DNA of 64,000 nucleotides from the NCBI GenBank assembly GCA_041747675.1, contig JBGTES010000027.1, positions 15,088-79,087 of the forward strand, given 5' to 3'. Made by a program: the position numbers and the translations under genes. The notes below the pieces were generated by a model. That model was given only the letters and a program-made list of their open reading frames with translations, was not told the DNA's origin and did no database searches. The stretch comes from Flavobacteriales bacterium (GTDB lineage: Bacteria; Bacteroidota; Bacteroidia; Flavobacteriales_F; PHOS-HE28). The first letter of the stretch is position 1; every line of letters begins with the position of its first letter. Below, piece by piece: positions 1,853-20,401 of this stretch.

Positions 1853-2995
1853 ATGTCGAAACCGCAGGTGCTCGTATTCATCGATTGGTACAAGCCGTTC
1901 TTCAAGGCCGGAGGGCCGGTGCGAAGTCTGGTGAACATGGTGGACCACCTCCACGATCACATAGACTTCCACATCGTCACTGGCGACCGCGATTACACCG
2001 CCACAACTTCGCCGGCTGAACCTTCCAAAGACCAATGGACCACCCAGGATAAGGGCGAACGCGTTTGGTACGCCTCGCCGGAAGGGCGCAGCGGGGTACG
2101 CTGGAAGGCGCTGTTGCAGGAGCGTGCGTGGGATGCGGTCTACATCAATGGCATGTGGTCGCGGTGGAGCACCATGCTACCCTTGTGGCTGCTGCGCGGA
2201 ACGAAGCAGCGGCGCATTGTCGCTGTACGCGGCATGCTGGCCAGTGGCGTGATGCGGCAGAAAAACACCTTGAAGCGACTGACGCTGCTGGTGATGCGCG
2301 CAGCGGGCTGCTTCAAGGGTGTGGAGTTCCAGGCCACCAACGCGGAGGAAGTGGAGGACGTGAAGCGCTGGTTCGGCAGCGATGCCGTGGTGCATCTCGT
2401 CCCGAATCTGGGCCGCAAGCTGGATCGCGATACACCCGCTCCGATCAGCAAGCGTCCCGGCGAATTGCGCCTTGTGAGTGTCGGTCGCATCGCACAGGAG
2501 AAGAACACCCTTTTCGCCATCGAACGCCTTGGCGGGATCACCGGTGATGTCAGTTTTGATCTATACGGAACCGTGTACGACGAACAATACTGGCAACGTT
2601 GTCAAGCGGCGATCGCCACGCTGCCACCGAATGTGAGGGTGCCATGGCACGGTGAAGTAGCGCCAGAGCACGTGCCGGAGGTGCTCGCCACAGCGCATGT
2701 CGTCTTCATGCCCAGTGTAGGCGAGAACTTCGGCCATTCCATGCTGGAGGCATTGAGCGTGGGTCGTCCACTGCTCATCAGCGACCGCACACCATGGAAG
2801 GATCTGGAGCGGCAGCAGGCTGGTTGGGACCTGCCGTTGGTTAGACCGAAGCGTTTCGAGGAGGTCTTGCAGCGAATGGTGGAGATGGACGATGAGAACT
2901 TCGTTGCGTTGAGTAAGGGCGCGTTCGCCTTGGGTCTGCGATCTTTGGCGGTGGAACCCCTGCTGGACAAGTACCAATGGATGTTCCGCCCATGA
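1853..2995 (+). CDS. glycosyltransferase family 4
   Basis: N-terminal 'KAGGPVRSL' and 'MPSVGENFGHSMLEALSVGRP' motif. Confidence 0.9.
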   Translation: MSKPQVLVFIDWYKPFFKAGGPVRSLVNMVDHLHDHIDFHIVTGDRDYTATTSPAEPSKDQWTTQDKGERVWYASPEGRSGVRWKALLQERAWDAVYINGMWSRWSTMLPLWLLRGTKQRRIVAVRGMLASGVMRQKNTLKRLTLLVMRAAGCFKGVEFQATNAEEVEDVKRWFGSDAVVHLVPNLGRKLDRDTPAPISKRPGELRLVSVGRIAQEKNTLFAIERLGGITGDVSFDLYGTVYDEQYWQRCQAAIATLPPNVRVPWHGEVAPEHVPEVLATAHVVFMPSVGENFGHSMLEALSVGRPLLISDRTPWKDLERQQAGWDLPLVRPKRFEEVLQRMVEMDDENFVALSKGAFALGLRSLAVEPLLDKYQWMFRP

Positions 2996-3038
2996 CCCGC
3001 GCCACCGTCGACCTTTCCCACTTCGACAACGCGAAGAC
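2989..3038 (+). repeat. duplicated 5' end of wcaF (copy of 3783-3832); opens a 25-aa remnant ORF 2992-3069
   Basis: cccATGacccgcgccaccgtcgacctttcccacttcgacaacgcgaagac vs cccATGacccgccccaccgtcgacctttcccgcttcgacaacgcgaagac: 48/50 identical. Confidence 0.95.
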
Positions 3039-3070
3039 TCTCACCCAGCCCATCCGTTTATCTTCGTGAC

Positions 3071-3337
3071 ATGAAGGAGAAGGTCACCATTCGTATCAGC
3101 CAAGCCCGATCACGTAAGGTCAAGCGACTGATGCGAGGTAGAAAGGGTTCCGTTAGTGAACTGGTAGAGGACCTACTCGATAAGGCCGTCGAAAAGCCGG
3201 TGCGACGGACTTGGGTCGATGAACTATATGGCAGTGGAAAGTTCACAGAGACCGACCTCGCGAACGATCAGCGGTTGAGTGATCTCGTCAAAGGCGCACG
3301 CACCAAGCCAACTTACAAGTCGAACAAGAAAGGATGA
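3071..3337 (+). CDS. putative RHH-type antitoxin (DUF6364-like)
   Basis: 88 aa with 'KVTIRIS...KGSVSELVEDLL' RHH pattern. Overlaps the PIN gene (ATGA). TATCTTCG -7 box at 3059-3066. Confidence 0.75.
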   Translation: MKEKVTIRISQARSRKVKRLMRGRKGSVSELVEDLLDKAVEKPVRRTWVDELYGSGKFTETDLANDQRLSDLVKGARTKPTYKSNKKG

Positions 3338-3771
3338 GAGCGCTGGTGGACAGCGACGTGCTGGTGGCCACGATCGATGGCACCGAGGTGCAAAGTCCTG
3401 CATGCAAAGCTGTTCTGGACCTTGTCGTACGCGATGGCCTCGAAGCAGTTGTGACCCCATTGATCGTGGCCAATGTGATGTACGCACTGAAGCGGAAGTG
3501 GCGCACCACAAGACCAAGAACATGGCGCAAGGACATCGACCGGATGATGACAGCCATGCTTCCGACCCTGCGTATGATACCGGTGGACGAACGTGACTTT
3601 CTCGCCAGTTTTGCCAGCGATTTCCTCGACAAGGAGGATGGCATCCAGTATTTCGCAGCGGTCCGGAGCAAACAGGTGGATGTGATCGTCAGCTGCAATG
3701 TGAAGGACTACGCCACAGGGGATCTACCCGCCATGGAACCCGCAGAATTCCTTGACAAATACCTCAAGTAG
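3334..3771 (+). CDS. PIN-domain (VapC-like) toxin
   Basis: 'ALVDSDVLV', 'DKEDGIQYFAA', 'IVSCNVKDY', 'PAEFL' PIN acidic residues. Confidence 0.9.
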   Translation: MRALVDSDVLVATIDGTEVQSPACKAVLDLVVRDGLEAVVTPLIVANVMYALKRKWRTTRPRTWRKDIDRMMTAMLPTLRMIPVDERDFLASFASDFLDKEDGIQYFAAVRSKQVDVIVSCNVKDYATGDLPAMEPAEFLDKYLK

Positions 3772-3785
3772 TTCTTCGGACACCC

Positions 3786-4346
3786 ATGACCCGCCCCACC
3801 GTCGACCTTTCCCGCTTCGACAACGCGAAGACCTTCGATCCCGGTGCGGGCGTGGTGAAGCGCACGCTGTGGTACTTCACCAACGCATTGTTCTTTCTCA
3901 ACCCGTGTTTTCCATTCCGCTCGCCCAAACCCGCGCTACTCCGGCTGTTCGGCGCACGGGTGGGAAAGGGCGTGGTGATCCATCCCGGCGTCAACATCAA
4001 GTTCCCTTGGAAGCTTAGCATCGGCGATCATAGCTGGATCGGCCAACGTGCCTGGCTGGACAACCTGGACACGCTCACCATTGGCAGCAACGTGGTCATC
4101 AGCCAGGGCGCCATGATCATACAAGGCAGCCACGACTATAAGAAGATCGACTACCCCACTTACACCAAACCCGTGGTGCTGGAGGATGGCAGCTGGGTGG
4201 GGGCGGGGGCCATTGTCACGCTCGGGGTTACCATGAAGAGTCACAGTGTGCTTGCCGCGGGAAGTATGACAAGCAAGGATCTGGAGGCGTACACGATCTA
4301 TCAGGGGAATCCGGCGGTGGCGGTACGGGAACGGGTCATTGAGTAG
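3786..4346 (+). CDS. wcaF: WcaF-like colanic acid/EPS acetyltransferase (hexapeptide repeat)
   Basis: 'LLRLFGARVGKGVVIHPGVNIKFPWKLSIGDHSWIG', 'GSHDY', 'YQGNPA'. Confidence 0.9.
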   Translation: MTRPTVDLSRFDNAKTFDPGAGVVKRTLWYFTNALFFLNPCFPFRSPKPALLRLFGARVGKGVVIHPGVNIKFPWKLSIGDHSWIGQRAWLDNLDTLTIGSNVVISQGAMIIQGSHDYKKIDYPTYTKPVVLEDGSWVGAGAIVTLGVTMKSHSVLAAGSMTSKDLEAYTIYQGNPAVAVRERVIE

Positions 4347-14491: not shown

Positions 14492-15418
14492 ATGCACCCG
14501 GATAGTACGACCACTGGATCGATCGAAGGACCACGGGTTTACCCCTTCGTCAATTTGTTGCGCGGATACATCCTGTTCCTCGTTGGGTCGGCGGTCCTGG
14601 TGTGCTTGTTCCACATCATCTCCATGCGCACTGGCTCGCCCTGGAGCGAAATGGCCCTGGACTTCGTCACGGAACGGGAGTTCCTCCTTTTCCTGGGGAT
14701 CGGCTTTGCGGCGCAGATGGTGGATGGGGCCCTTGGCATGGCATATGGCGTTACGGCCACTTCCTTCCTCGTGGCCATGGGCGTACCTCCCGCTGCGGCC
14801 AGTGCAGGCGTGCACGTTTCGGAGGTGTTCACAACGGCCATCTCAGGGGTGTCGCATTGGCGCTTTGGCAACGTGGACTTCCGCTTGTTCAAACGGCTGG
14901 CCTTGCCTGGTGCCATTGGTGCTGCCTTGGGGGCATACGTGCTCAGTTCGGTGGACGCTTCCGCGATGCGGCCCATCGTCGCGCTCTATCTGCTCGTCAT
15001 GGGTGTGATCATTTTCCGCAAAGCCTTCCGCCGTACGGTCCTTCTGAAGGGGCCTCCCCCCAAGGTGTCACTTCTGGCTCTCTTTGGTGGCTTCGCCGAT
15101 GCCTCCGGTGGAGGTGGCTGGGGTCCTGTGGTCACCTCCACGCTGATCGGTTCGGGCAATCATCCCCGAACGACCATCGGCACGGTGAACGCATCGGAAT
15201 TCCTGGTCGCCCTTACTGCTTCCGGGGTCTTCACTATCTTGATCGGCATGGACAGTTGGCCGGTGATCCTTGGCCTTATTGCGGGTGGTGCGCTGGCCGC
15301 GCCGATCGGAGCCTATGTGTGCCACCGCATCAACGTCCGCGTGGCCATGGGGGTGGTCGGGTTGCTCGTCATTTTCCTTAGCACCCGCACGCTGTTGAAG
15401 GCCATGGGCATGGAATGA
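14492..15418 (+). CDS. sulfite exporter TauE/SafE (TSUP) family permease
   Basis: 'GFAAQMVDGALGMAYGV', 'DASGGGGWGPVVTSTL', 'TIGTVNASEF'. Confidence 0.92.
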   Translation: MHPDSTTTGSIEGPRVYPFVNLLRGYILFLVGSAVLVCLFHIISMRTGSPWSEMALDFVTEREFLLFLGIGFAAQMVDGALGMAYGVTATSFLVAMGVPPAAASAGVHVSEVFTTAISGVSHWRFGNVDFRLFKRLALPGAIGAALGAYVLSSVDASAMRPIVALYLLVMGVIIFRKAFRRTVLLKGPPPKVSLLALFGGFADASGGGGWGPVVTSTLIGSGNHPRTTIGTVNASEFLVALTASGVFTILIGMDSWPVILGLIAGGALAAPIGAYVCHRINVRVAMGVVGLLVIFLSTRTLLKAMGME

Positions 15419-16779
15419 TCGGTATGGCAGGGAGCAAGGAACCGCATTCTACCATGATGAACGACACACGGCCCCCGGCCCCCACTTTCCGCGAAGCCTT
15501 CGCCTTCTGGGTGAAGCTGGGTTTCATCAGCTTCGGTGGGCCTGCCGGGCAGATCGCCATCATGCACGATTTCCTGGTGGAGAAAAAGCGCTGGGTGAGC
15601 AACAGCCGCTTCATGCATGCGCTCAACTACTGCATGCTGCTGCCCGGACCGGAAGCACAGCAGTTGGCCACCTACATCGGATGGTTGCTGCACGGACGCT
15701 GGGGAGGCTTCGCGGCCGGAGCGCTGTTCGTGCTGCCGTCCATGTTCATCCTCTTCGCCCTCAGTGCGGTCTACGTCACCTACGGGCAGGTACCCTGGGT
15801 GCTGGCCCTGTTCAATGGTCTGAAGCCCGCTGTGATCGCCATCGTGATCCTGGCCCTGTTCAAGATCGGCAGGAAGTCGCTGCTGACGCCCTTCCACTGG
15901 TCGGTCGCCGTGGCGGCGTTCATCGCCATCTTCTGGTTCGATGTCCCTTTCCCGCTGATCATCCTCGCCGCGATACTTGTGGCGGCCCTGTTCCGAAAAC
16001 TGGTGCCCGGCAGTTTCAAACCGACATCGGCACAGGCAAAGGTCCGTTCCGTGGATGAGGACTTCTTCTACTTGAATAGCGGCTCACCGCCGGCTGGATC
16101 GGGCTTCTCGCCAATGCGCTTGGCGGGACAGGTGGGCATCACGCTGCTTTTCTGGTTACTGCCCCTGGTGGTGCTGCATCTGATGAGCGACGACCCGGGG
16201 TTCTGGCGTGTGCTGAGCAGCTTCTTCACGCAGGCGGCACTGGTCACCTTCGGCGGGGCCTATGCAGTGTTGCCGTATGTGGCGCAGGTCAGTGTGGAGG
16301 ATCTGGGGTGGCTTTCGAGCATGGAGATGGTGGATGGCCTTGCCTTGGGCGAGACCACGCCCGGACCCCTGATCATGGTGCTGGCCTTCGTGGGCTTCAT
16401 GGCGGGCTACAACCACTTCGGCGCATCGGTGGCCATGGGTGGTCTGGCACTGGTGGTCACCACCTACTACACCTTCCTGCCCTGCTTCCTGTTCATCTTC
16501 GCTGGTGCGCCCATCATCGAACGCACGCGGAACATCATGTGGCTGAGGGAGGTCCTTTCGCTGGTGACGGCCGCAGTGGTTGGGGTGGTCTTGAACCTCA
16601 CCATCTATCTGGGCCGGGCGGTACTTTTTCCGGAAGACCTGGCATGGGAGAACCTCGATCTATTCTCCCTGGGCTGGGTCGTCATTTCCTTCATCGCGCT
16701 GCATCGCTTCAAGGTGAATATGTTGCTTTGGCTTGGCGCCAGCGCACTGTTCGGGCTCACGGTGTATTCGATGAGTTGA
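15415..16779 (+). CDS. chrA: chromate/oxyanion efflux transporter (long-chain CHR)
   Basis: 'KLGFISFGGPAGQIAIMH', 'LPGPEAQQLA', 'TFGGAYAVLPY', 'ETTPGP'; start may be 15454. Confidence 0.93.
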   Translation: MIGMAGSKEPHSTMMNDTRPPAPTFREAFAFWVKLGFISFGGPAGQIAIMHDFLVEKKRWVSNSRFMHALNYCMLLPGPEAQQLATYIGWLLHGRWGGFAAGALFVLPSMFILFALSAVYVTYGQVPWVLALFNGLKPAVIAIVILALFKIGRKSLLTPFHWSVAVAAFIAIFWFDVPFPLIILAAILVAALFRKLVPGSFKPTSAQAKVRSVDEDFFYLNSGSPPAGSGFSPMRLAGQVGITLLFWLLPLVVLHLMSDDPGFWRVLSSFFTQAALVTFGGAYAVLPYVAQVSVEDLGWLSSMEMVDGLALGETTPGPLIMVLAFVGFMAGYNHFGASVAMGGLALVVTTYYTFLPCFLFIFAGAPIIERTRNIMWLREVLSLVTAAVVGVVLNLTIYLGRAVLFPEDLAWENLDLFSLGWVVISFIALHRFKVNMLLWLGASALFGLTVYSMS

Positions 16780-16828
16780 CGCTGTACTGCTCAGGAAAAC
16801 CGATCTCTGGATTTTACACACGCTTGTG

Positions 16829-16883
16829 TCATCCCACCATCACACTCGTCATTGCGATGCTCCCCATCACCGTGCGGTCGTTG
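16829..16883 (-). repeat. displaced copy C of the ygiD 3' end (NDRTVMGSIAMTSVMVG*)
   Basis: Matches 17938-17992 with only synonymous differences. Confidence 0.95.
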
Positions 16884-16928
16884 TGGGAAGGCTGAGCTAA
16901 ATGACGTCTGGTCGAAGAGTAGGATCCA

Positions 16929-17204
16929 CTACCGACCATCATCACGAAGCCCCTTGAATGTTACCCAGAAGAAGCCATAGACGATCGCAAACGCCAATGA
17001 CTGGCTGATGATCAGTAGGAAGAATGGGTCCCGCTCCATGAACAAGATGAGCGAGACAAATAAGGAGCCTGGGAGTAGGGCGTAGAATAGTAAATCGCTA
17101 TTGGGTGCGATAAAGGGATAGGCCGTAGCCATCGCAACATGTCCAAAGGCCAGATAGAAAGCGAGACGTCGGTTGCTGATCTTCGATCGGGATGCCTGTT
17201 GCAT
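16929..17204 (-). CDS. small hypothetical membrane protein (91 aa, about 3 TM), cassette cargo
   Basis: ATG at 17204; hydrophobic helices; lower GC than the flanks; lies between ygiD-end copies B and C. Confidence 0.65.
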   Translation of the reverse strand: MQQASRSKISNRRLAFYLAFGHVAMATAYPFIAPNSDLLFYALLPGSLFVSLILFMERDPFFLLIISQSLAFAIVYGFFWVTFKGLRDDGR

Positions 17205-17299
17205 GGTATTTTCTGATCGAACGAGCGGAAGATACGGTCGCGGAAGCATCTTTCCTGTGCTGGGCTGGGGCTGGGCACAGGCAAGATGCCTGTGCGACA

Positions 17300-17357
17300 T
17301 TACCCCACCATCACACTCGTCATCGCAATGCTCCCCATCACCGTGCGGTCGTTGAAG
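17300..17357 (-). repeat. displaced copy B of the ygiD 3' end (FNDRTVMGSIAMTSVMVG*)
   Basis: 55/58 identical to 17938-17995; the changes cgg>cgc, acc>acg and TGA>TAA are all synonymous. Confidence 0.95.
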
Positions 17358-17430
17358 GCTCCTCGCGGTCCGAATTTCCTGCACACGCAATTCTCTTGGG
17401 GGCATGCACTACTTTTGAACAAAGCAGGAC

Positions 17431-17661
17431 ATGGAGACCATTCACCTTCCCTTGATCATCGAGACCGATGAGGACGGCGTGTTCATCGTGAGTTGCCCCG
17501 TGTTCAAAGGCTGCCATTCCTATGGCGCCACGGTGGAAGAGGCCATGGCCAACATCAAGGAGGTCATCGGCATGTGCATGGAGGAGGAGGAGCCTCAGCA
17601 GCTGAACCGCTTCGTTGGCTTCCGGGAGATCGAGGTGCCCGTATCGCGCATGGCTTCGTGA
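17431..17661 (+). CDS. hicB: HicB-family antitoxin (short, no DNA-binding domain)
   Basis: 'DEDGVFIVSCPVFKGCHSYGATVEEAMANIKEVI'; TACTTTTG -7 box at 17410-17417. Confidence 0.9.
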   Translation: METIHLPLIIETDEDGVFIVSCPVFKGCHSYGATVEEAMANIKEVIGMCMEEEEPQQLNRFVGFREIEVPVSRMAS

Positions 17662-17900
17662 TGGGTACCATGCCGGTCATTTCGGGCAAGGACTTGATGC
17701 GCGTGCTACAGCATGAGGGATTCGAATTGGTGCGAGTGAATGGATCGCACCATCGGCTCAGGCATCCTGACGGTCGTGTGACCACGATCCCGGTCCATGC
17801 CAACAAAGACCTGCCAAAGGGCTTGCTGCGCAAGATCATTCGGGAGGACCTGAAGATCGAGGTCGATGATCTTGTGGCGTTGATCGAAGGCCGTACGTAG
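17661..17900 (+). CDS. hicA: HicA-family mRNA interferase toxin
   Basis: 'GFELVRVNGSHHRLRHPDGRVTTIPVHANKDLPKGLLRKIIR'. Confidence 0.92.
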   Translation: MGTMPVISGKDLMRVLQHEGFELVRVNGSHHRLRHPDGRVTTIPVHANKDLPKGLLRKIIREDLKIEVDDLVALIEGRT

Positions 17901-17937
17901 CGTGCGCTGGATGGGGAAGTCCCGTACCTGCGCTTGA

Positions 17938-18810
17938 TCACCCCACCATCACACTCGTCATCGCAATGCTCCCCATCACGGTCCGGTCGTTGAAGAGCTG
18001 CACAGGTTCCTTCTTGTCCTTCAACCCAAGCACGTAGAGCAGCGGCAGGTAGTGCTCCGGTGTGGGGATGCTGAGTTGAAAAGCCCGGCCCTGCGCGCTG
18101 TAGTTGGCCAGTTGCGCATGGCCCTCGTTCATGATCAGCTCCTTCATGCGTGTGTTGGCCTCGATGGCCCAGTCGTAGCCGCCATCGGGGTTGCGCCAGT
18201 CGATCACGCCCAGGTTGTGGACCATGTTACCGCTGCCGATGATGAGCACACCTTTCTTACGCAACGCGGCGAGTTCACGCGCGAGGTCGTAGTGGCCCTG
18301 CGGTGAAAGGCCGCGGTCCAGGCTCAGTTGCACCACAGGCACATCGGCCTTGGGGTAGAGGTGGATGATCACGCTCCACGCGCCGTGGTCCAGGCCCCAC
18401 TGGTGGTCCACCCCGATGTGGCGACTGGTGATGGCCTCCTGCGTCTGCTTCGCTACGGAAGGACTACCCGGCGCTGGGTACTGCACGGCGAAGAGTTCCT
18501 TCGGAAAGCCACCGAAGTCGTGGATCGTACGCGGCTTCTCCATGCCTGTGACGAAGGTGCCCTTCGTCTCCCAATGCGCACTGATGCAAAGAATGGCGTT
18601 GGGCTTCGGCAGGTCCTTCGCGATCGCCTTCCAGCCTTGCGAGAATTCATTGTCCTCGATGGCGTTCATCGGGCTGCCGTGGCCGAGGAAGAGCACGGGC
18701 ATGGTGGGAGTGGAGGGCACATTCTCCAGCGCCCGGCCAAGTTCGCGCAGCGAGAGTGCCGCGCCCAGTGGTGCGATGCTCATGAGTTGTATGGCTTTGC
18801 GGCGGTGCAT
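17938..18810 (-). CDS. ygiD: 4,5-DOPA extradiol dioxygenase (LigB family)
   Basis: 'PVLFLGHGSPMNA', 'SAHW', 'TIHDFGGFP', 'WGLDHGAWS', 'GSGNMVHNL', 'PTPEHYLPL'. Confidence 0.95.
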   Translation of the reverse strand: MHRRKAIQLMSIAPLGAALSLRELGRALENVPSTPTMPVLFLGHGSPMNAIEDNEFSQGWKAIAKDLPKPNAILCISAHWETKGTFVTGMEKPRTIHDFGGFPKELFAVQYPAPGSPSVAKQTQEAITSRHIGVDHQWGLDHGAWSVIIHLYPKADVPVVQLSLDRGLSPQGHYDLARELAALRKKGVLIIGSGNMVHNLGVIDWRNPDGGYDWAIEANTRMKELIMNEGHAQLANYSAQGRAFQLSIPTPEHYLPLLYVLGLKDKKEPVQLFNDRTVMGSIAMTSVMVG

Positions 18811-18991
18811 GTCCCACAGGCGCCTCGCTTGTGGCCATGCATGCCAACAAAGCCGGGAGGCTGAGGCAAAGGTAATAATATACTTTCCATGGAAAGTAAA
18901 TCGGTCTCCGAGCCGCCGGCCTGGACTTCTTGATCGAAGTATAGGAGCGGTCGGTGGTCTTCGTCAGCCACAGGCGAGGCGCCTGTGGGAC
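18811..18991. repeat. intergenic segment bounded by 25-bp inverted repeats (REP/MITE-like)
   Basis: gtcccacaggcgcctcgcttgtggc (18811-18835) vs gccacaggcgaggcgcctgtgggac (18967-18991), 24/25 complementary. Confidence 0.85.
18867..18898 (-). promoter_or_regulatory. ygiD promoter -7 box (TACCTTTG) and perfect 18-bp palindromic operator TACTTTCCATGGAAAGTA
   Basis: -7 box at 18874-18867 on the minus strand; palindrome at 18881-18898. Confidence 0.7.
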
Positions 18992-20401
18992 TCAGACCAG
19001 CCTCCCCGCCAACCACTTCAACTGCAGCTCCGCCAGCTTGGCCTCGTACTGTGCGAGCAGCAGGCGGTTCTCCGCATCGATCAGGCCTTGCTGCACATCG
19101 CGCAGTTCCACGGCGGTGATCACGCCGATGCGGTAGCTCTCCAGCGCCACGTCCACCTGGGTCTGGGTGCCTTGCAGATTGCCCTGCTCCAAGGCCACGC
19201 GGGTGCGGGCGGTGCTGTACAGCGTCCAGGCATCGAGGAGTTGTTGTTCCACCAGGAGTTGCGTTTCCTCGGTGGTGATGGCGGCCTGCTCACGACCCAG
19301 CTTGGCGGCTTCGGTGGCGCGTGAGGCCTGCCCTCCGCGGAAGATGGGCACGCTGACCCGCACGCCGTAGTCGGGACCGATGGCGCGGTTGCTCTGCAGG
19401 AAGCCCACGTCGCTCTGGCTGCGGCGATAAGCATAGTTGCCGAAGACATCGATGCGTGGCATCAGTGCACCGCGCAGTTCCTTCACGGAGATGTCGGCGG
19501 TGAGCTGTTGCTGGCGGGCCTGCATCAGGCTGCTGTTGGTGCCGCGCGCATCGCGTTGCAGGGTGGTGAGGTCCAGTTCCTCCGCTGCGGGGATCTCCGT
19601 TTCCGTGGCGAAGGGCGTGGCGGGATCGCGGCCCAGCAGCATGTTGAGGCGGTGCTGTGCGTTGGCGTCCTGCATCTTCAGGTCCAGTATGGCAGCGCTA
19701 TCGGTGCTCAGATCAAGCCGTGCTTGTATCACTTCCAAGCCGCTGCTGCTGCCGATGCGCTCACCCGTTTCGGCGATCATCAAACGTTCGCGGCCGGTGC
19801 GCAGGCCTTCGCGCTGTACATCGAGCGCCTTGCGGAGTTGCACGGACTGGTAGTAGGCGGCCATCACTTCGTACACGGTGGACTCCACCTGCTGCTTCAA
19901 CAGGTTGCGCTCGATCTCCTCCAGCGCGGCCAGCCTGTCCTTCACAGCGAACATGGTGAGACCGTCGAAGACCGTCCAGTTCAGTTGTATGGCGCCGCTG
20001 AGGATCTGGCTGTTCGCATCGTCCACCTCGCGCACTTCGCCGCTGAAGAAGGTCTGCCGCGTGGCGCTCCGGTCGCCATCGTATTGGCCAATGGCATCGA
20101 TGGATGGCAGCATACCCGCCTGTCCGGCGGTGTTCATCAGTTCGGCGGTCTTCAGCGACAGCTTGGCGAGGCGGATGCCGTGGTTGTGCTCCAGGGCGAT
20201 GTTCAGGGCCTGCTCGGCGGTGAGGAGTTCCTGGGAGAAGGAGGGGAGGAGGGAGGAGAAGGCGAGGAAGAACGCAGAGGCGCCAAGGCGCAGAGGGCGC
20301 AGAGCTGTGGCACAAGAAAGGCTGTGTACCGCTTCGAAGACACTCAAGGCAGCTCCGAACAGCCTCGATGGCTCAATGCTGTTGTGGGATCGTTGAGTCA
20401 T
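18992..20401 (-). CDS. TolC family outer-membrane efflux protein (start uncertain)
   Basis: 'ALNIALEHNHGIRLA', 'LPSID', 'SYRIGVITAVELRDVQ' OEP repeats; last gene of the RND operon. Confidence 0.9.
   Translation of the reverse strand: MTQRSHNSIEPSRLFGAALSVFEAVHSLSCATALRPLRLGASAFFLAFSSLLPSFSQELLTAEQALNIALEHNHGIRLAKLSLKTAELMNTAGQAGMLPSIDAIGQYDGDRSATRQTFFSGEVREVDDANSQILSGAIQLNWTVFDGLTMFAVKDRLAALEEIERNLLKQQVESTVYEVMAAYYQSVQLRKALDVQREGLRTGRERLMIAETGERIGSSSGLEVIQARLDLSTDSAAILDLKMQDANAQHRLNMLLGRDPATPFATETEIPAAEELDLTTLQRDARGTNSSLMQARQQQLTADISVKELRGALMPRIDVFGNYAYRRSQSDVGFLQSNRAIGPDYGVRVSVPIFRGGQASRATEAAKLGREQAAITTEETQLLVEQQLLDAWTLYSTARTRVALEQGNLQGTQTQVDVALESYRIGVITAVELRDVQQGLIDAENRLLLAQYEAKLAELQLKWLAGRLV

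Follow-up and report, generated by a model that had tools for sequence, protein, structure and literature searches.

What process leaves the end of a single gene standing three times in a row between that gene and its neighbor? The question arises from a 64,000-nucleotide window of a Flavobacteriales genome, a metagenome-assembled genome (MAG) of 4.08 Mb in 99 contigs that is 96.7% complete. In the window, an intact ygiD-like gene for a 290-aa extradiol dioxygenase of the LigB family (17938..18810, minus strand; Pfam LigB, E 1.5e-20) converges with chrA, which encodes a chromate transporter (15415..16779, plus strand; Pfam Chromate_transp, 1.2e-74) and is the fixed right-hand neighbor. The two products share 96.6% and 92% amino acid identity, respectively, with their orthologs in the closest relative, G118 (ygiD locus L045). 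We consider it fairly probable that the ygiD-chrA interval is scarred by foreign DNA captured twice in succession at the ygiD 3' end, both times without a dedicated recombinase. On our best reading, capture was serial and anchored by homology, and the same scar lies at many genes of this bacterium.

The end of ygiD, comprising its last 17 codons and stop, is present in three direct copies at 17938-17995, 17300-17357 and 16829-16883. A repeat search of the window recovered these as a single three-copy family with spacings of 471 and 638, reproducing the positions and periods given in a preliminary description of this DNA. A 38-nt core has three matches at two or fewer mismatches, versus 0 in 100 shuffles. 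Searching the whole genome with the tail gave 14 matches at E<=10, of which three (E 5.5e-32 to 3.0e-16) are the known copies and the other 11 are chance matches of 14-22 nt (E>=0.48). The copies, designated A, B and C in the order given, each translate to NDRTVMGSIAMTSVMVG*, copy A being the final 57 nt of ygiD. In the shared codons A differs from B at three positions and B from C at four, and all seven changes are synonymous or stop-to-stop, as had been described. The preliminary description also had the likeness end at the stop codon, which needs correction, as A and B are alike for about 11 nt more, giving a 69-nt repeat. Repeat copy A (17927..17995, minus strand) consists of the 17 codons of the working tail, TGA and about 11 nt past the stop; copy B (17289..17357, minus strand), which has a near match at the native ygiD end of another genome, G138 (L040), is an orphan tail that ends in TAA; and copy C (16829..16883, minus strand) is the oldest orphan tail. 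Copies B and C have 5' limits no more than 4 nt apart, and both repeats stop about 11-12 nt past the stop codon. A REP- or terminator-like hairpin with a 9-bp stem (17275..17295) lies directly downstream of copy B in gene sense; it is single in its own genome and is seen again in further members of the genus. The order of the locus is ygiD-A-hicBA-B-ORF91-C-chrA, with repeats of 55-69 nt around inserts of 416 and 569-580 bp.

Both inserts carry genes of the kind that the preliminary description had proposed, a hicBA toxin-antitoxin pair, which Pfam confirmed, and a lone 91-aa gene. In the first cassette (17358..17926, plus strand), hicB (17431-17661) and hicA (17661-17900) overlap at ATGA and run opposite to ygiD. 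These adjacent genes for a HicB-like antitoxin (PF15919; HicB_lk_antitox, 3.3e-09) and a HicA toxin (PF07927; HicA_toxin, 7.6e-21) lie in one operon. Located 14 nt before the hicB ATG, at 17410-17417, is the motif TAnnTTTG, which we take to be the Bacteroidetes-type promoter consensus and which also appears in 65 of 200 shuffles of the 3.3-kb locus. The second cassette (16884..17288, minus strand) has a single ORF (16929-17204) for a predicted membrane protein of 91 aa that matches no Pfam family and finds only weak Atlas matches (0.90 or less). Among 130 other genomes of the genus it has one homolog, 40% identical, in G022, and no repeats surround that homolog. Since hicBA points away from the direction of both the 91-aa gene and ygiD, cassette orientation is mixed. 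No backbone remnants were found in the ygiD cassettes, in which Pfam detects HicA and HicB only; an Rfam search of 16000-19200 returned 0 matches, and a scan for sigma-70 promoters and terminators showed no excess over shuffles.

Could the stack be a product of assembly, with strain variants of the ygiD end joined by the assembler? Several circumstances would fit this explanation: the MAG is fragmented into its 99 contigs, the contigs of two relatives begin within the ygiD tail, the related case in G138 includes a run of about 105 N, and one of the sequencing runs consulted, X2, holds a second ygiD allele with 31 differences in 352 nt. Each orphan junction, however, joins a cassette to a truncated tail, and such a joint must exist in the reads. 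In Logan contigs (k=31) of two runs, the junctions at 16883/4 and 17357/8 are crossed by separate contigs with 0 differences (X1, records 2 and 3; X2, records 10 and 11), one contig extending across copy B from cassette 2 to hicB. The two runs are probably the source sample, which makes this agreement, one of contigs rather than reads, independent of the assembler and not of the data, and 17970-18030 lacks exact contig cover in both. The same architecture is also present in relatives whose assemblies have 5 to 9 contigs, and we regard an assembly artefact as highly improbable.

The order in which the cassettes arrived can be read from the closest relative. In G118 the site is empty and consists of the chrA stop, 49 nt and the ygiD stop. 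The spacer between the chrA stop and the stop of copy C in the window (16780..16828) has the same length of 49 nt, so copy C is the displaced original tail in its native position relative to chrA, and the cassettes came one after another, pushing older tails downstream. The orphan tails are former working ends of different ygiD alleles, because their differences are synonymous only and because copy B with 12 nt past its stop equals the native ygiD end of G138, another species, in all but the stop codon. Serial displacement and allelic tails had both been put forward in the preliminary description, and both are supported. Identity between ygiD and its G118 counterpart is 0.91-0.97 and drops to 0.86-0.88 over the last 180 nt, which is suggestive, if not decisive, of a recombined gene end.

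Alignment of the interval across relatives, which the preliminary description had called for, uncovered variation in the form of one empty site and one different arrangement. A ygiD match is present in 29 of 41 genomes of species-level relatives, and among the 30 loci fetched (one without downstream sequence) only the window's own has extra tail copies within about 1.5 kb. Several tail copies on one contig were seen, among 131 genomes of the genus, in G000 (three), G138 (three) and, weakly, G128 (second match at E 0.45). The extra copies in G138 are longer, the orphans beginning at least 45 nt further upstream than those of the window. A scan of genome contigs for the tail pattern gave eight stretches with one match each, and metagenome contigs gave one uninformative stretch. 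X3, a run from another study with a small share, has tail-like pieces with several different flanks, from which we draw no conclusion. As to donors, none of the 130 other genus genomes has hicBA or the 91-aa gene as a plain neighbor of ygiD. Relatives of hicBA (about 75% identical in nucleotides) reside elsewhere in those genomes, and at eight such loci the flanking repeats are clear in two (L083, 28 nt, 100%; L084, 50 nt, 90%), weak pairs of 73% in two and absent in four.

How might such captures proceed? The layout, the sequence of arrivals, the empty site, the allelic source of the tails and the wide spread of the pattern are observed, whereas we infer the routes of DNA entry and recombination and any stabilizing effect of the toxins. 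DNA of a relative would enter with its own ygiD end and the content downstream of it, on the first occasion the 91-aa gene and later hicBA. Homologous recombination would anchor the incoming DNA in ygiD, and the far end would join immediately upstream of the resident tail, through an illegitimate joint or, where a tail copy already existed, by homology with that copy. The donor tail would then become the working gene end, with the resident tail displaced downstream intact. Once duplicated, the tail could act as a portable homology arm with which RecA-type recombination adds, swaps or deletes cassettes. Because repeat-by-repeat loss of a cassette would free its toxin, toxin-antitoxin inserts may persist where neutral ones are lost. 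Homology-facilitated recombination had been named in the preliminary description as an alternative to mobilization in trans, and it is the one that the data favor.

The integron-like alternative assumes miniature site-specific elements, comparable to CIMEs or integron cassettes, that use the ygiD end as att site, are served in trans by a tyrosine recombinase and accrete in tandem. The architecture can indeed be written attL-element-att-element-attR with the repeat lying over a gene 3' end, B and C have almost the same limits, and tandem accretion of decayed, integrase-less elements is described (PMC5704250). Four tyrosine recombinases (PF00589) are encoded in the genome, two of 411-414 aa and a shorter pair (314 and 329 aa) of putative Xer-like enzymes. 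None of the four is on the 97.7-kb contig that holds the stack (C27), and no serine recombinase was found in the genome, so the stack is integrase-free, as first thought. The att-site part of the earlier proposal fares worse. Six folds of the ygiD repeat (three copies, both strands) gave z of -1.02 to +1.45 versus shuffles, with neither a hairpin nor an attC-like fold, and hicBA lies opposite to ygiD with its own promoter-like motif. Moreover, at least 18 other sites in the genome, described below, have unrelated repeats of 29-240 nt, and no 8-10-mer is common to the cassette ends of more than two of 18 sites (60 nt per end, both strands). As the repeats differ from one site to the next and their cassette ends have no motif in common, a single site-specific recombinase cannot act at every site, and the specificities would be too many for four. 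The more upstream start of the G138 orphans speaks against a fixed core at ygiD, as the missing backbone remnants in cassettes of 416 and 569-580 bp do against decayed elements. Site-specific elements are thus quite unlikely to account for the stack. Y1 transposases (IS200/RAYT type), with eight matches in the genome, none closer to the stack than about 59 kb, were also considered as movers and were rejected because this family is not known to leave a long duplication.

The ygiD stack is one of many such scars. A scan of the genome yielded 410 repeat pairs, 146 of them isolated, from which 30 were chosen by eye and the 18 with a clean single insert were kept; pairs inside repeat-domain proteins, runs of paralogs, tRNA pairs and a CRISPR-like array were dropped by eye. 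By this hand-picked count, at least 18 small inserts are framed by direct repeats of 29-240 nt that copy the end of a neighboring gene, and a 29-nt repeat pair around a ParE match is a 19th candidate. The repeats are gene tails (glyS, ffh, an aldehyde dehydrogenase [ALDH], an ABC permease, an SSS transporter and others) or gene heads, and the units measure 0.4-1.3 kb. One further cassette lies in the window itself (2989..3832, plus strand; repeat scan and Pfam) and carries a DUF6364 gene (3071-3337) and a PIN_3 toxin gene (3334-3771). Its 50-nt repeats (2989-3038 and 3783-3832, 96% identical) copy the head of an acetyltransferase gene, namely its first 16 codons. This gene head is single-copy in the empty sites of G138 and G102, and in G118 the site holds a different PIN cassette, also with a degenerate copy of roughly this gene head. 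A recognized type II toxin family was found in 7 of the 18 hand-picked inserts (HicA, ParE in three, RelE, PIN_3 and DUF5615/Mut7-C). Judged from these 18 sites, toxin-antitoxin cargo appears over-represented among framed inserts, as might be expected if loss of a cassette frees its toxin.

Related genomes have comparable scars. In G118, three copies of the glyS tail, with repeat lengths of 198 and 91 nt, frame two cassettes, the inner of which has its ortholog in the only glyS cassette of G000. The genome of G060 (5 contigs) has a PIN cassette within a 241-nt gene-tail repeat beside a hicBA cassette within a 50-nt repeat. At another of the sites, C63, the 149-aa cassette gene is in G083 a plain, unduplicated neighbor of the transporter gene, a donor-like state.

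The codon differences between repeat copies bear on where the copies came from. Over 15 comparisons at 14 sites, 49 differences are synonymous and 29 non-synonymous, where the ygiD stack counts as two pairs and the 29 include the boundary codon of copy C. This ratio deviates from the 37% synonymous changes expected from decay of a duplicate formed in situ (P = 4e-6) and, much less strongly, from an expectation of 50% (P 0.015). The preliminary description had predicted that orphan tails across the genome would show a synonymous bias rather than random change, and this prediction was not refuted. Because the differences are mostly synonymous, the repeat copies appear to derive from different alleles. 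The bias is complete at ygiD (7/7), glyS (4/4) and site C26 (4/4) and nearly so at C63 (10/11), and it is uneven elsewhere, with synonymous to non-synonymous counts of 1:5 at C16, 0:2 at the acetyltransferase head and 7:7 at C19. Copies are nearly identical at C22 (99%) and C43 (98%), and those of C24 differ by a 3-nt indel.

Another possible origin is that the repeats arose in place by long target duplication, an event that Nobusato et al. are said to have described in 2000 for restriction-modification gene units. The synonymous differences would then be later, ordinary recombination having replaced the working tail with other alleles; such a swap of the working gene end could likewise bring about a synonymous bias. 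This explanation fits the clean repeats, the single-copy targets at the empty sites (ygiD in G118; the acetyltransferase head in G138 and G102), the near-same limits of both ygiD repeats, the near-identical copies at C22 and C43 and the decay-like changes at C16. The repeats of more than 30 bp and the inserts of less than 20 kb without a mobility gene also agree with the criteria of Furuta et al. It accords poorly with the sites at which all or nearly all changes are synonymous and with the P value against simple decay. In addition, copy B bears the allele flank of another species, the two glyS events of G118 left repeats of different lengths (198 versus 91 nt) within one gene, and no Ku for end-joining was found in this 96.7% complete genome. 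Overall, we hold duplication in situ to be unlikely.

Some observations also count against capture. Two independent illegitimate joints would rarely fall so nearly together as the limits of copies B and C, and in G118 a different PIN cassette is accompanied by a copy of the acetyltransferase head. No donor with hicBA or the 91-aa gene beside ygiD was found in the genus genomes, and the synonymous bias is uneven at C16, C19 and the acetyltransferase head. One of the papers cited itself presents homology-facilitated illegitimate recombination as rare in experiments. It is possible, if rather unlikely, that the toxin-antitoxin mini-cassettes are mobile units in their own right, inserted at gene termini by an unrecognized mechanism encoded by host or cassette that makes a defined duplication of 30-240 nt and reuses the duplicated end as a landing pad. 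What keeps this idea alive is that different cassettes, both at ygiD and at the acetyltransferase head, have nearly identical repeat limits. If it were true, gene tails would serve as numerous attachment sites, each a private one, and the stacks would amount to integron-like arrays independent of any recombinase; only in that event would a new class of recombination system be at hand.

The findings touch on an old question, namely how toxin-antitoxin genes move about chromosomes without a transposase or integrase. The scars are dense and readable: a single 4-Mb genome has at least 18 such sites, a stack is seen at ygiD and another at glyS, and relatives show both empty and filled alleles. They link toxin-antitoxin cassettes to long target duplication, which has so far been described for restriction-modification units, as well as to arrays formed by displacement at polymorphic toxin loci. 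As records of acquisition order and donor allele, the orphan gene ends make gene flow in uncultured Bacteroidota traceable. They also offer a test bed for whether addiction opposes deletion of repeat-framed inserts and whether capture is driven by RecA.

How does the stack compare with known systems? Integron and CALIN arrays have IntI beside the array or attC sites alone, each attC being an imperfect palindrome that folds as a single strand, and their cassettes are mostly promoterless and in one orientation. The ygiD stack resembles them in having 0.4-0.6-kb cassettes, which often hold toxin-antitoxin genes and have a repeated element at their bounds. It differs in that IntI and an attC fold are missing, orientation is mixed, hicBA has a promoter-like motif and the repeat is host coding sequence. 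In tycheposons, serial integration at one gene end reportedly leaves partial gene copies in variable islands, and these elements are said to encode their own recombinases and to target mainly tRNA genes. The stack shares with these elements of Prochlorococcus (bioRxiv 10.1101/2020.12.28.424599) the partial gene copies that record serial integrations, and departs from them in the encoded recombinase and the tRNA targets. CIMEs are presented as decayed ICEs or IMEs of several kb that a related integrase moves at defined att sites (PMC5704250). Their accretion yields direct repeats that take in the target gene end, the attL/attR layout seen at ygiD, whereas the units here measure 0.4-1.3 kb, are free of backbone remnants and occupy many unrelated sites.

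Two systems come closer. In the effector-immunity arrays of the Vibrio cholerae T6SS (PMC5361080), modules from different strains are added by sequential displacement, and the route proposed there combines anchoring by homology at one end with illegitimate joining at the other. As in those arrays and in the orphan 3' regions of Rhs/CDI systems, a complete main gene comes first and the displaced modules trail behind it; every module begins with a piece of the conserved region, and the newest is nearest the gene. The T6SS and Rhs/CDI arrays consist of polymorphic toxin gene pieces, i.e., toxin tips with immunity genes, at one weapon locus, whereas the anchors described here are the ends of housekeeping-type genes (ygiD, glyS, ffh and others) across the genome. 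Long, variable target duplications around restriction-modification units were described by Furuta, Abe & Kobayashi (2010, PMC2853133); the repeats are 46-423 bp, site-specific in sequence and single at the empty site, and they may overlap a gene 3' end. Common to these units and the cassettes are small size, putatively self-stabilizing cargo, the lack of transposase or integrase and long variable direct repeats, and ygiD has, as in the definition given there, repeats of more than 30 bp around inserts below 20 kb free of mobility genes, with a single copy in G118. The cargo at ygiD is hicBA and the 91-aa ORF and has no restriction-modification genes, making the stack a variant rather than a strict member of that class. 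Relative to those units, the synonymous-biased allelic copies, the stacking on one gene end, the Flavobacteriales MAG host and the additional cargo of small genes of unknown function also set it apart. A limited literature search found no report of long target duplication for toxin-antitoxin modules, and the supplementary figures of Furuta et al. may hold closer cases. On our best reading, then, the stack is not integron-like; its nearest counterparts are long target duplication and sequential displacement, and its addictive cargo would guard it against loss through the repeats.

The gene for a 290-aa LigB-family dioxygenase, ygiD (17938-18810, minus strand; ORF call and Pfam), ends in a tail (copy A) whose last 17 codons and stop codon recur on the same strand at 17300-17357 (copy B) and 16829-16883 (copy C). 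A direct-repeat search returned the three copies as a single repeat family with spacings of 471 and 638 bp. The A-B interval holds hicB (17431-17661) and hicA (17661-17900), both on the plus strand and assigned by Pfam (cassette 1), and the B-C interval a minus-strand 91-aa ORF without a family (cassette 2); beyond copy C, convergent with ygiD, is chrA, also recognized by Pfam. A 38-nt core of the tail had three matches at two or fewer mismatches while 0 of 100 shuffles had a match, and no copy beyond A, B, and C was found in the 4.08-Mb genome. The copies encode the same peptide, NDRTVMGSIAMTSVMVG*, and differ at three positions (A versus B) and four positions (B versus C), all synonymous or stop-for-stop (7:0 within the shared codons). 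These data confirm the three synonymously differing tails of the preliminary description, although it is slightly off in placing the end of the similarity at the stop codon, as A and B are alike for about 11 nt further. In two runs, probably of the source community, Logan contigs crossed both the chrA-copy C-cassette 2 and the cassette 2-copy B-cassette 1 junctions with 0 differences at the contig level, and one 701-nt contig led from cassette 2 through copy B into hicB. Thus, each joint between a cassette and a truncated tail must occur in reads.

The closest relative found, G118 (loci L045/L050; ygiD 96.6% amino acid identity, chrA 92%), has an empty site in which 49 nt separate the chrA and ygiD stop codons. 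In the window, precisely the same 49-nt spacing separates copy C from the chrA stop codon, so C is the original tail, unmoved relative to chrA, and about 1.1 kb has been inserted in front of it, as expected if cassettes arrived in turn and pushed the older tail downstream. The arrangement differs in G138 (L040; ygiD 91%), where the 3' end of ygiD recurs in extra copies downstream of the gene, with about 105 N in a row between them; the extra copy with a visible start extends upstream beyond the window orphans by at least 45 nt. Apart from the stop codon, copy B and its flank are identical to the working G138 tail and the 12 nt that follow it. Several ygiD tails on one contig occurred only in the source genome (G000), G138, and weakly G128 among the 131 genus genomes, and none of 29 other fetched loci, at the level of species representatives, had a second tail within about 1.5 kb. 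Neither hicBA nor the 91-aa cassette was found beside ygiD in a donor genome among the 130 other genus genomes. In two relatives (L041 and L044), the contig starts inside ygiD, 44 and 32 codons from its stop codon, which could reflect an assembly break at a repeated tail there too. In G102 (L055/L150; G102:C1, about 1019000-1024800), ygiD is represented only by residues 204-290, directly after an efflux-protein gene and about 1.7 kb from a glycosyltransferase/acetyltransferase site; in the window, about 14 kb lie between that site and ygiD. A large deletion with one end in ygiD, or a further orphan tail, may account for this.

The ygiD stack does not stand alone but belongs to a general pattern. 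A whole-genome scan for direct repeats (minimum 26 nt and 85% identity, 200-3000 nt apart) gave 410 pairs, 146 of them isolated; from 30 isolated pairs chosen by eye, 18 with one clean insert each were kept. Their inserts of 0.35-1.3 kb lie between repeats of 29-240 nt that copy one end of an adjacent gene, the 3' end for glyS, ffh, and genes for an aldehyde dehydrogenase, an ABC permease and ATPase, an SSS transporter, an HsdR-like protein, and others, and the 5' end for Mrp-like, aldehyde dehydrogenase, and acetyltransferase genes. A 19th pair, of 29-nt repeats, surrounds a ParE match. Seven of the 18 inserts carry a recognized type II toxin family (HicA, three ParE, RelE, PIN_3, and DUF5615/Mut7-C) and one has DUF4160/DUF2442, a combination listed as a candidate pair; the others, where searched, encode small proteins without a family and one aspartyl-protease-like protein. 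Within the window, Pfam identified a DUF6364/PIN_3 toxin cassette between the glycosyltransferase and acetyltransferase genes, framed by 50-nt repeats (2989-3038 and 3783-3832). The site is uninterrupted in G138 and G102, with the 50 nt in single copy, and G118 has a different PIN cassette there, accompanied by a degenerate copy of roughly the same acetyltransferase head. A second ParE-family match (G000:C61:34749-35012) directly follows the downstream repeat of the ParE cassette on contig C61, and no third repeat copy was found within 5 kb. A CRISPR-like array of identical 36-nt repeats, 65-66 nt apart, is found at G000:C82:30642-31203.

Related genomes display the same pattern. G060 (5 contigs) has a PIN cassette in a 241-nt gene-tail repeat followed directly by a hicBA cassette in a 50-nt repeat. 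At glyS in G118, three tail copies frame a Por_Secre_tail protein gene and a DUF433/DUF5615 pair; of these, the inner unit has its ortholog in the single glyS cassette of G000, and the repeats of the two events differ in length (198 and 91 nt). G024 (G024:C13; L083 1456-1949) holds a hicBA relative in an exact 28-nt intergenic repeat, with the antitoxin intact and an in-frame TAG in hicA that apparently inactivates the toxin. A 117-aa protein without a known family, which forms a single-gene repeat-framed cassette after the HsdR-like gene (G000:C63:32829-33182), also adjoins the G024 hicBA cassette (L083 2282-2635). In G083, the 149-aa cassette gene of the transporter site C63 is a plain neighbor of the transporter gene without duplication, which is the state expected of a donor.

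Codon differences between repeat copies point to the origin of the orphan ends. Over 15 comparisons at 14 sites, the ygiD stack being counted twice (A versus B and B versus C), 49 differences were synonymous and 29 non-synonymous. Random single changes would give a synonymous share of 23% and a duplicate decaying beside a constrained gene 37%; the excess gives P = 4e-6 against the latter and P = 0.015 against 50%. The bias is strong at ygiD, glyS (4:0), C26 (4:0), and C63 (10:1), and suggests that many orphan ends took their form as functional gene termini of a different lineage. Together with the match of copy B to the G138 end, it upholds the idea of the preliminary description that the ygiD orphans are former working ends of alleles. 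C16 (1:5), C19 (7:7), and the acetyltransferase head in the window (0:2) lack the bias, and some orphan ends look like old or local duplicates.

What is the mechanism by which the cassettes enter? The best fit for the stack and kindred sites is homology-anchored capture. Donor DNA comprising a gene end and its downstream neighbor would recombine within the conserved gene, and its far end would be joined just before the resident gene end, leaving gene, donor tail, cassette, and resident tail in that order; a second such capture would produce a stack. The two tails would then serve as homology arms through which ordinary recombination could add or delete cassettes or swap one for another. Deletion would be counter-selected by addictive cargo, which would explain the predominance of toxin-antitoxin pairs.

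An alternative mechanism is the integron-like accretion array of the preliminary description, with the ygiD tail as an attachment site. Each site has framing repeats of its own sequence and length, and no 8-10-mer is common to the cassette ends of more than two of 18 sites; a single integron- or CIME-like recombinase therefore cannot explain the whole set. The contig has no tyrosine recombinase, none of the four in the genome adjoins an examined cassette, and the genome has no serine recombinase. It also has no Ku. The ygiD-tail repeat folded no better than shuffles, and no Rfam family matched the ygiD-chrA locus. Y1-type transposases (PF01797; eight matches in the genome) were rejected as movers because the family is not known to leave long duplications. 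Two such IS200/RAYT-like genes outside the window (G000:C27:92227-93019 and G000:C77:135839-136659) lie between palindrome-bearing direct repeats. The earlier interpretation is partly supported: the order of events and the allelic tails hold, the integron-like machinery does not. The cassettes probably entered by ordinary recombination, and it is unlikely that they are autonomously mobile with gene ends as private attachment sites.

The start points of copies B and C are no more than 4 nt apart, and the two repeats run to 11-12 nt past the stop codon; the acetyltransferase gene head shows a similar coincidence of repeat limits between G000 and G118. The downstream limit may be just where the likeness of relatives runs out, and the upstream coincidence would fit either a site-preferring mechanism or one founding duplication reused later. 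A hairpin 3' of copy B (17275-17295) occurs once in G000 and, with the next 4 nt, has 93-100% identity matches in 13 of the 130 other genus genomes (four places in G115, three in G118). A similar pair of 25-nt hairpin-forming elements, inverted and 96% complementary (18811-18835 and 18967-18991), flanks the 131 nt that separate ygiD from the outer-membrane efflux gene and may represent REP-like elements or a small inserted unit. A different REP-like hairpin, which also recurs in relatives, lies immediately 3' of the G000 glyS tail (L128, about 1768-1790).

Homology-anchored capture as described here combines two known patterns. Insertion with long, variable target duplication is described for restriction-modification units (PMC2853133), and its mechanism is given as unknown, with a suggested link to double-strand breakage (PMC2853133; PMC3874152). 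For T6SS effector-immunity arrays and Rhs/CDI orphans, the proposed route is sequential displacement by homology-facilitated illegitimate recombination (PMC5361080). Within a partial coverage of the literature, we met no earlier account of toxin-antitoxin cassettes that lie between long target duplications at gene ends, and the pattern offers a footprint of small addiction cassettes entering chromosomes that is clear, testable, and apparently undescribed. The cassettes lack the defining features of integrons that were tested. They share the repeat architecture of site-specific accretion; as to a cognate integrase, the four tyrosine recombinases lie elsewhere in the genome, and as to a fixed crossover core, copies B and C start close together, but the G138 orphan starts further upstream and the G118 glyS repeats differ in length. 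They have the structure of insertions with long target duplication but differ in cargo, and they have the architecture of the displacement arrays but differ in both the kind of gene and the cargo.
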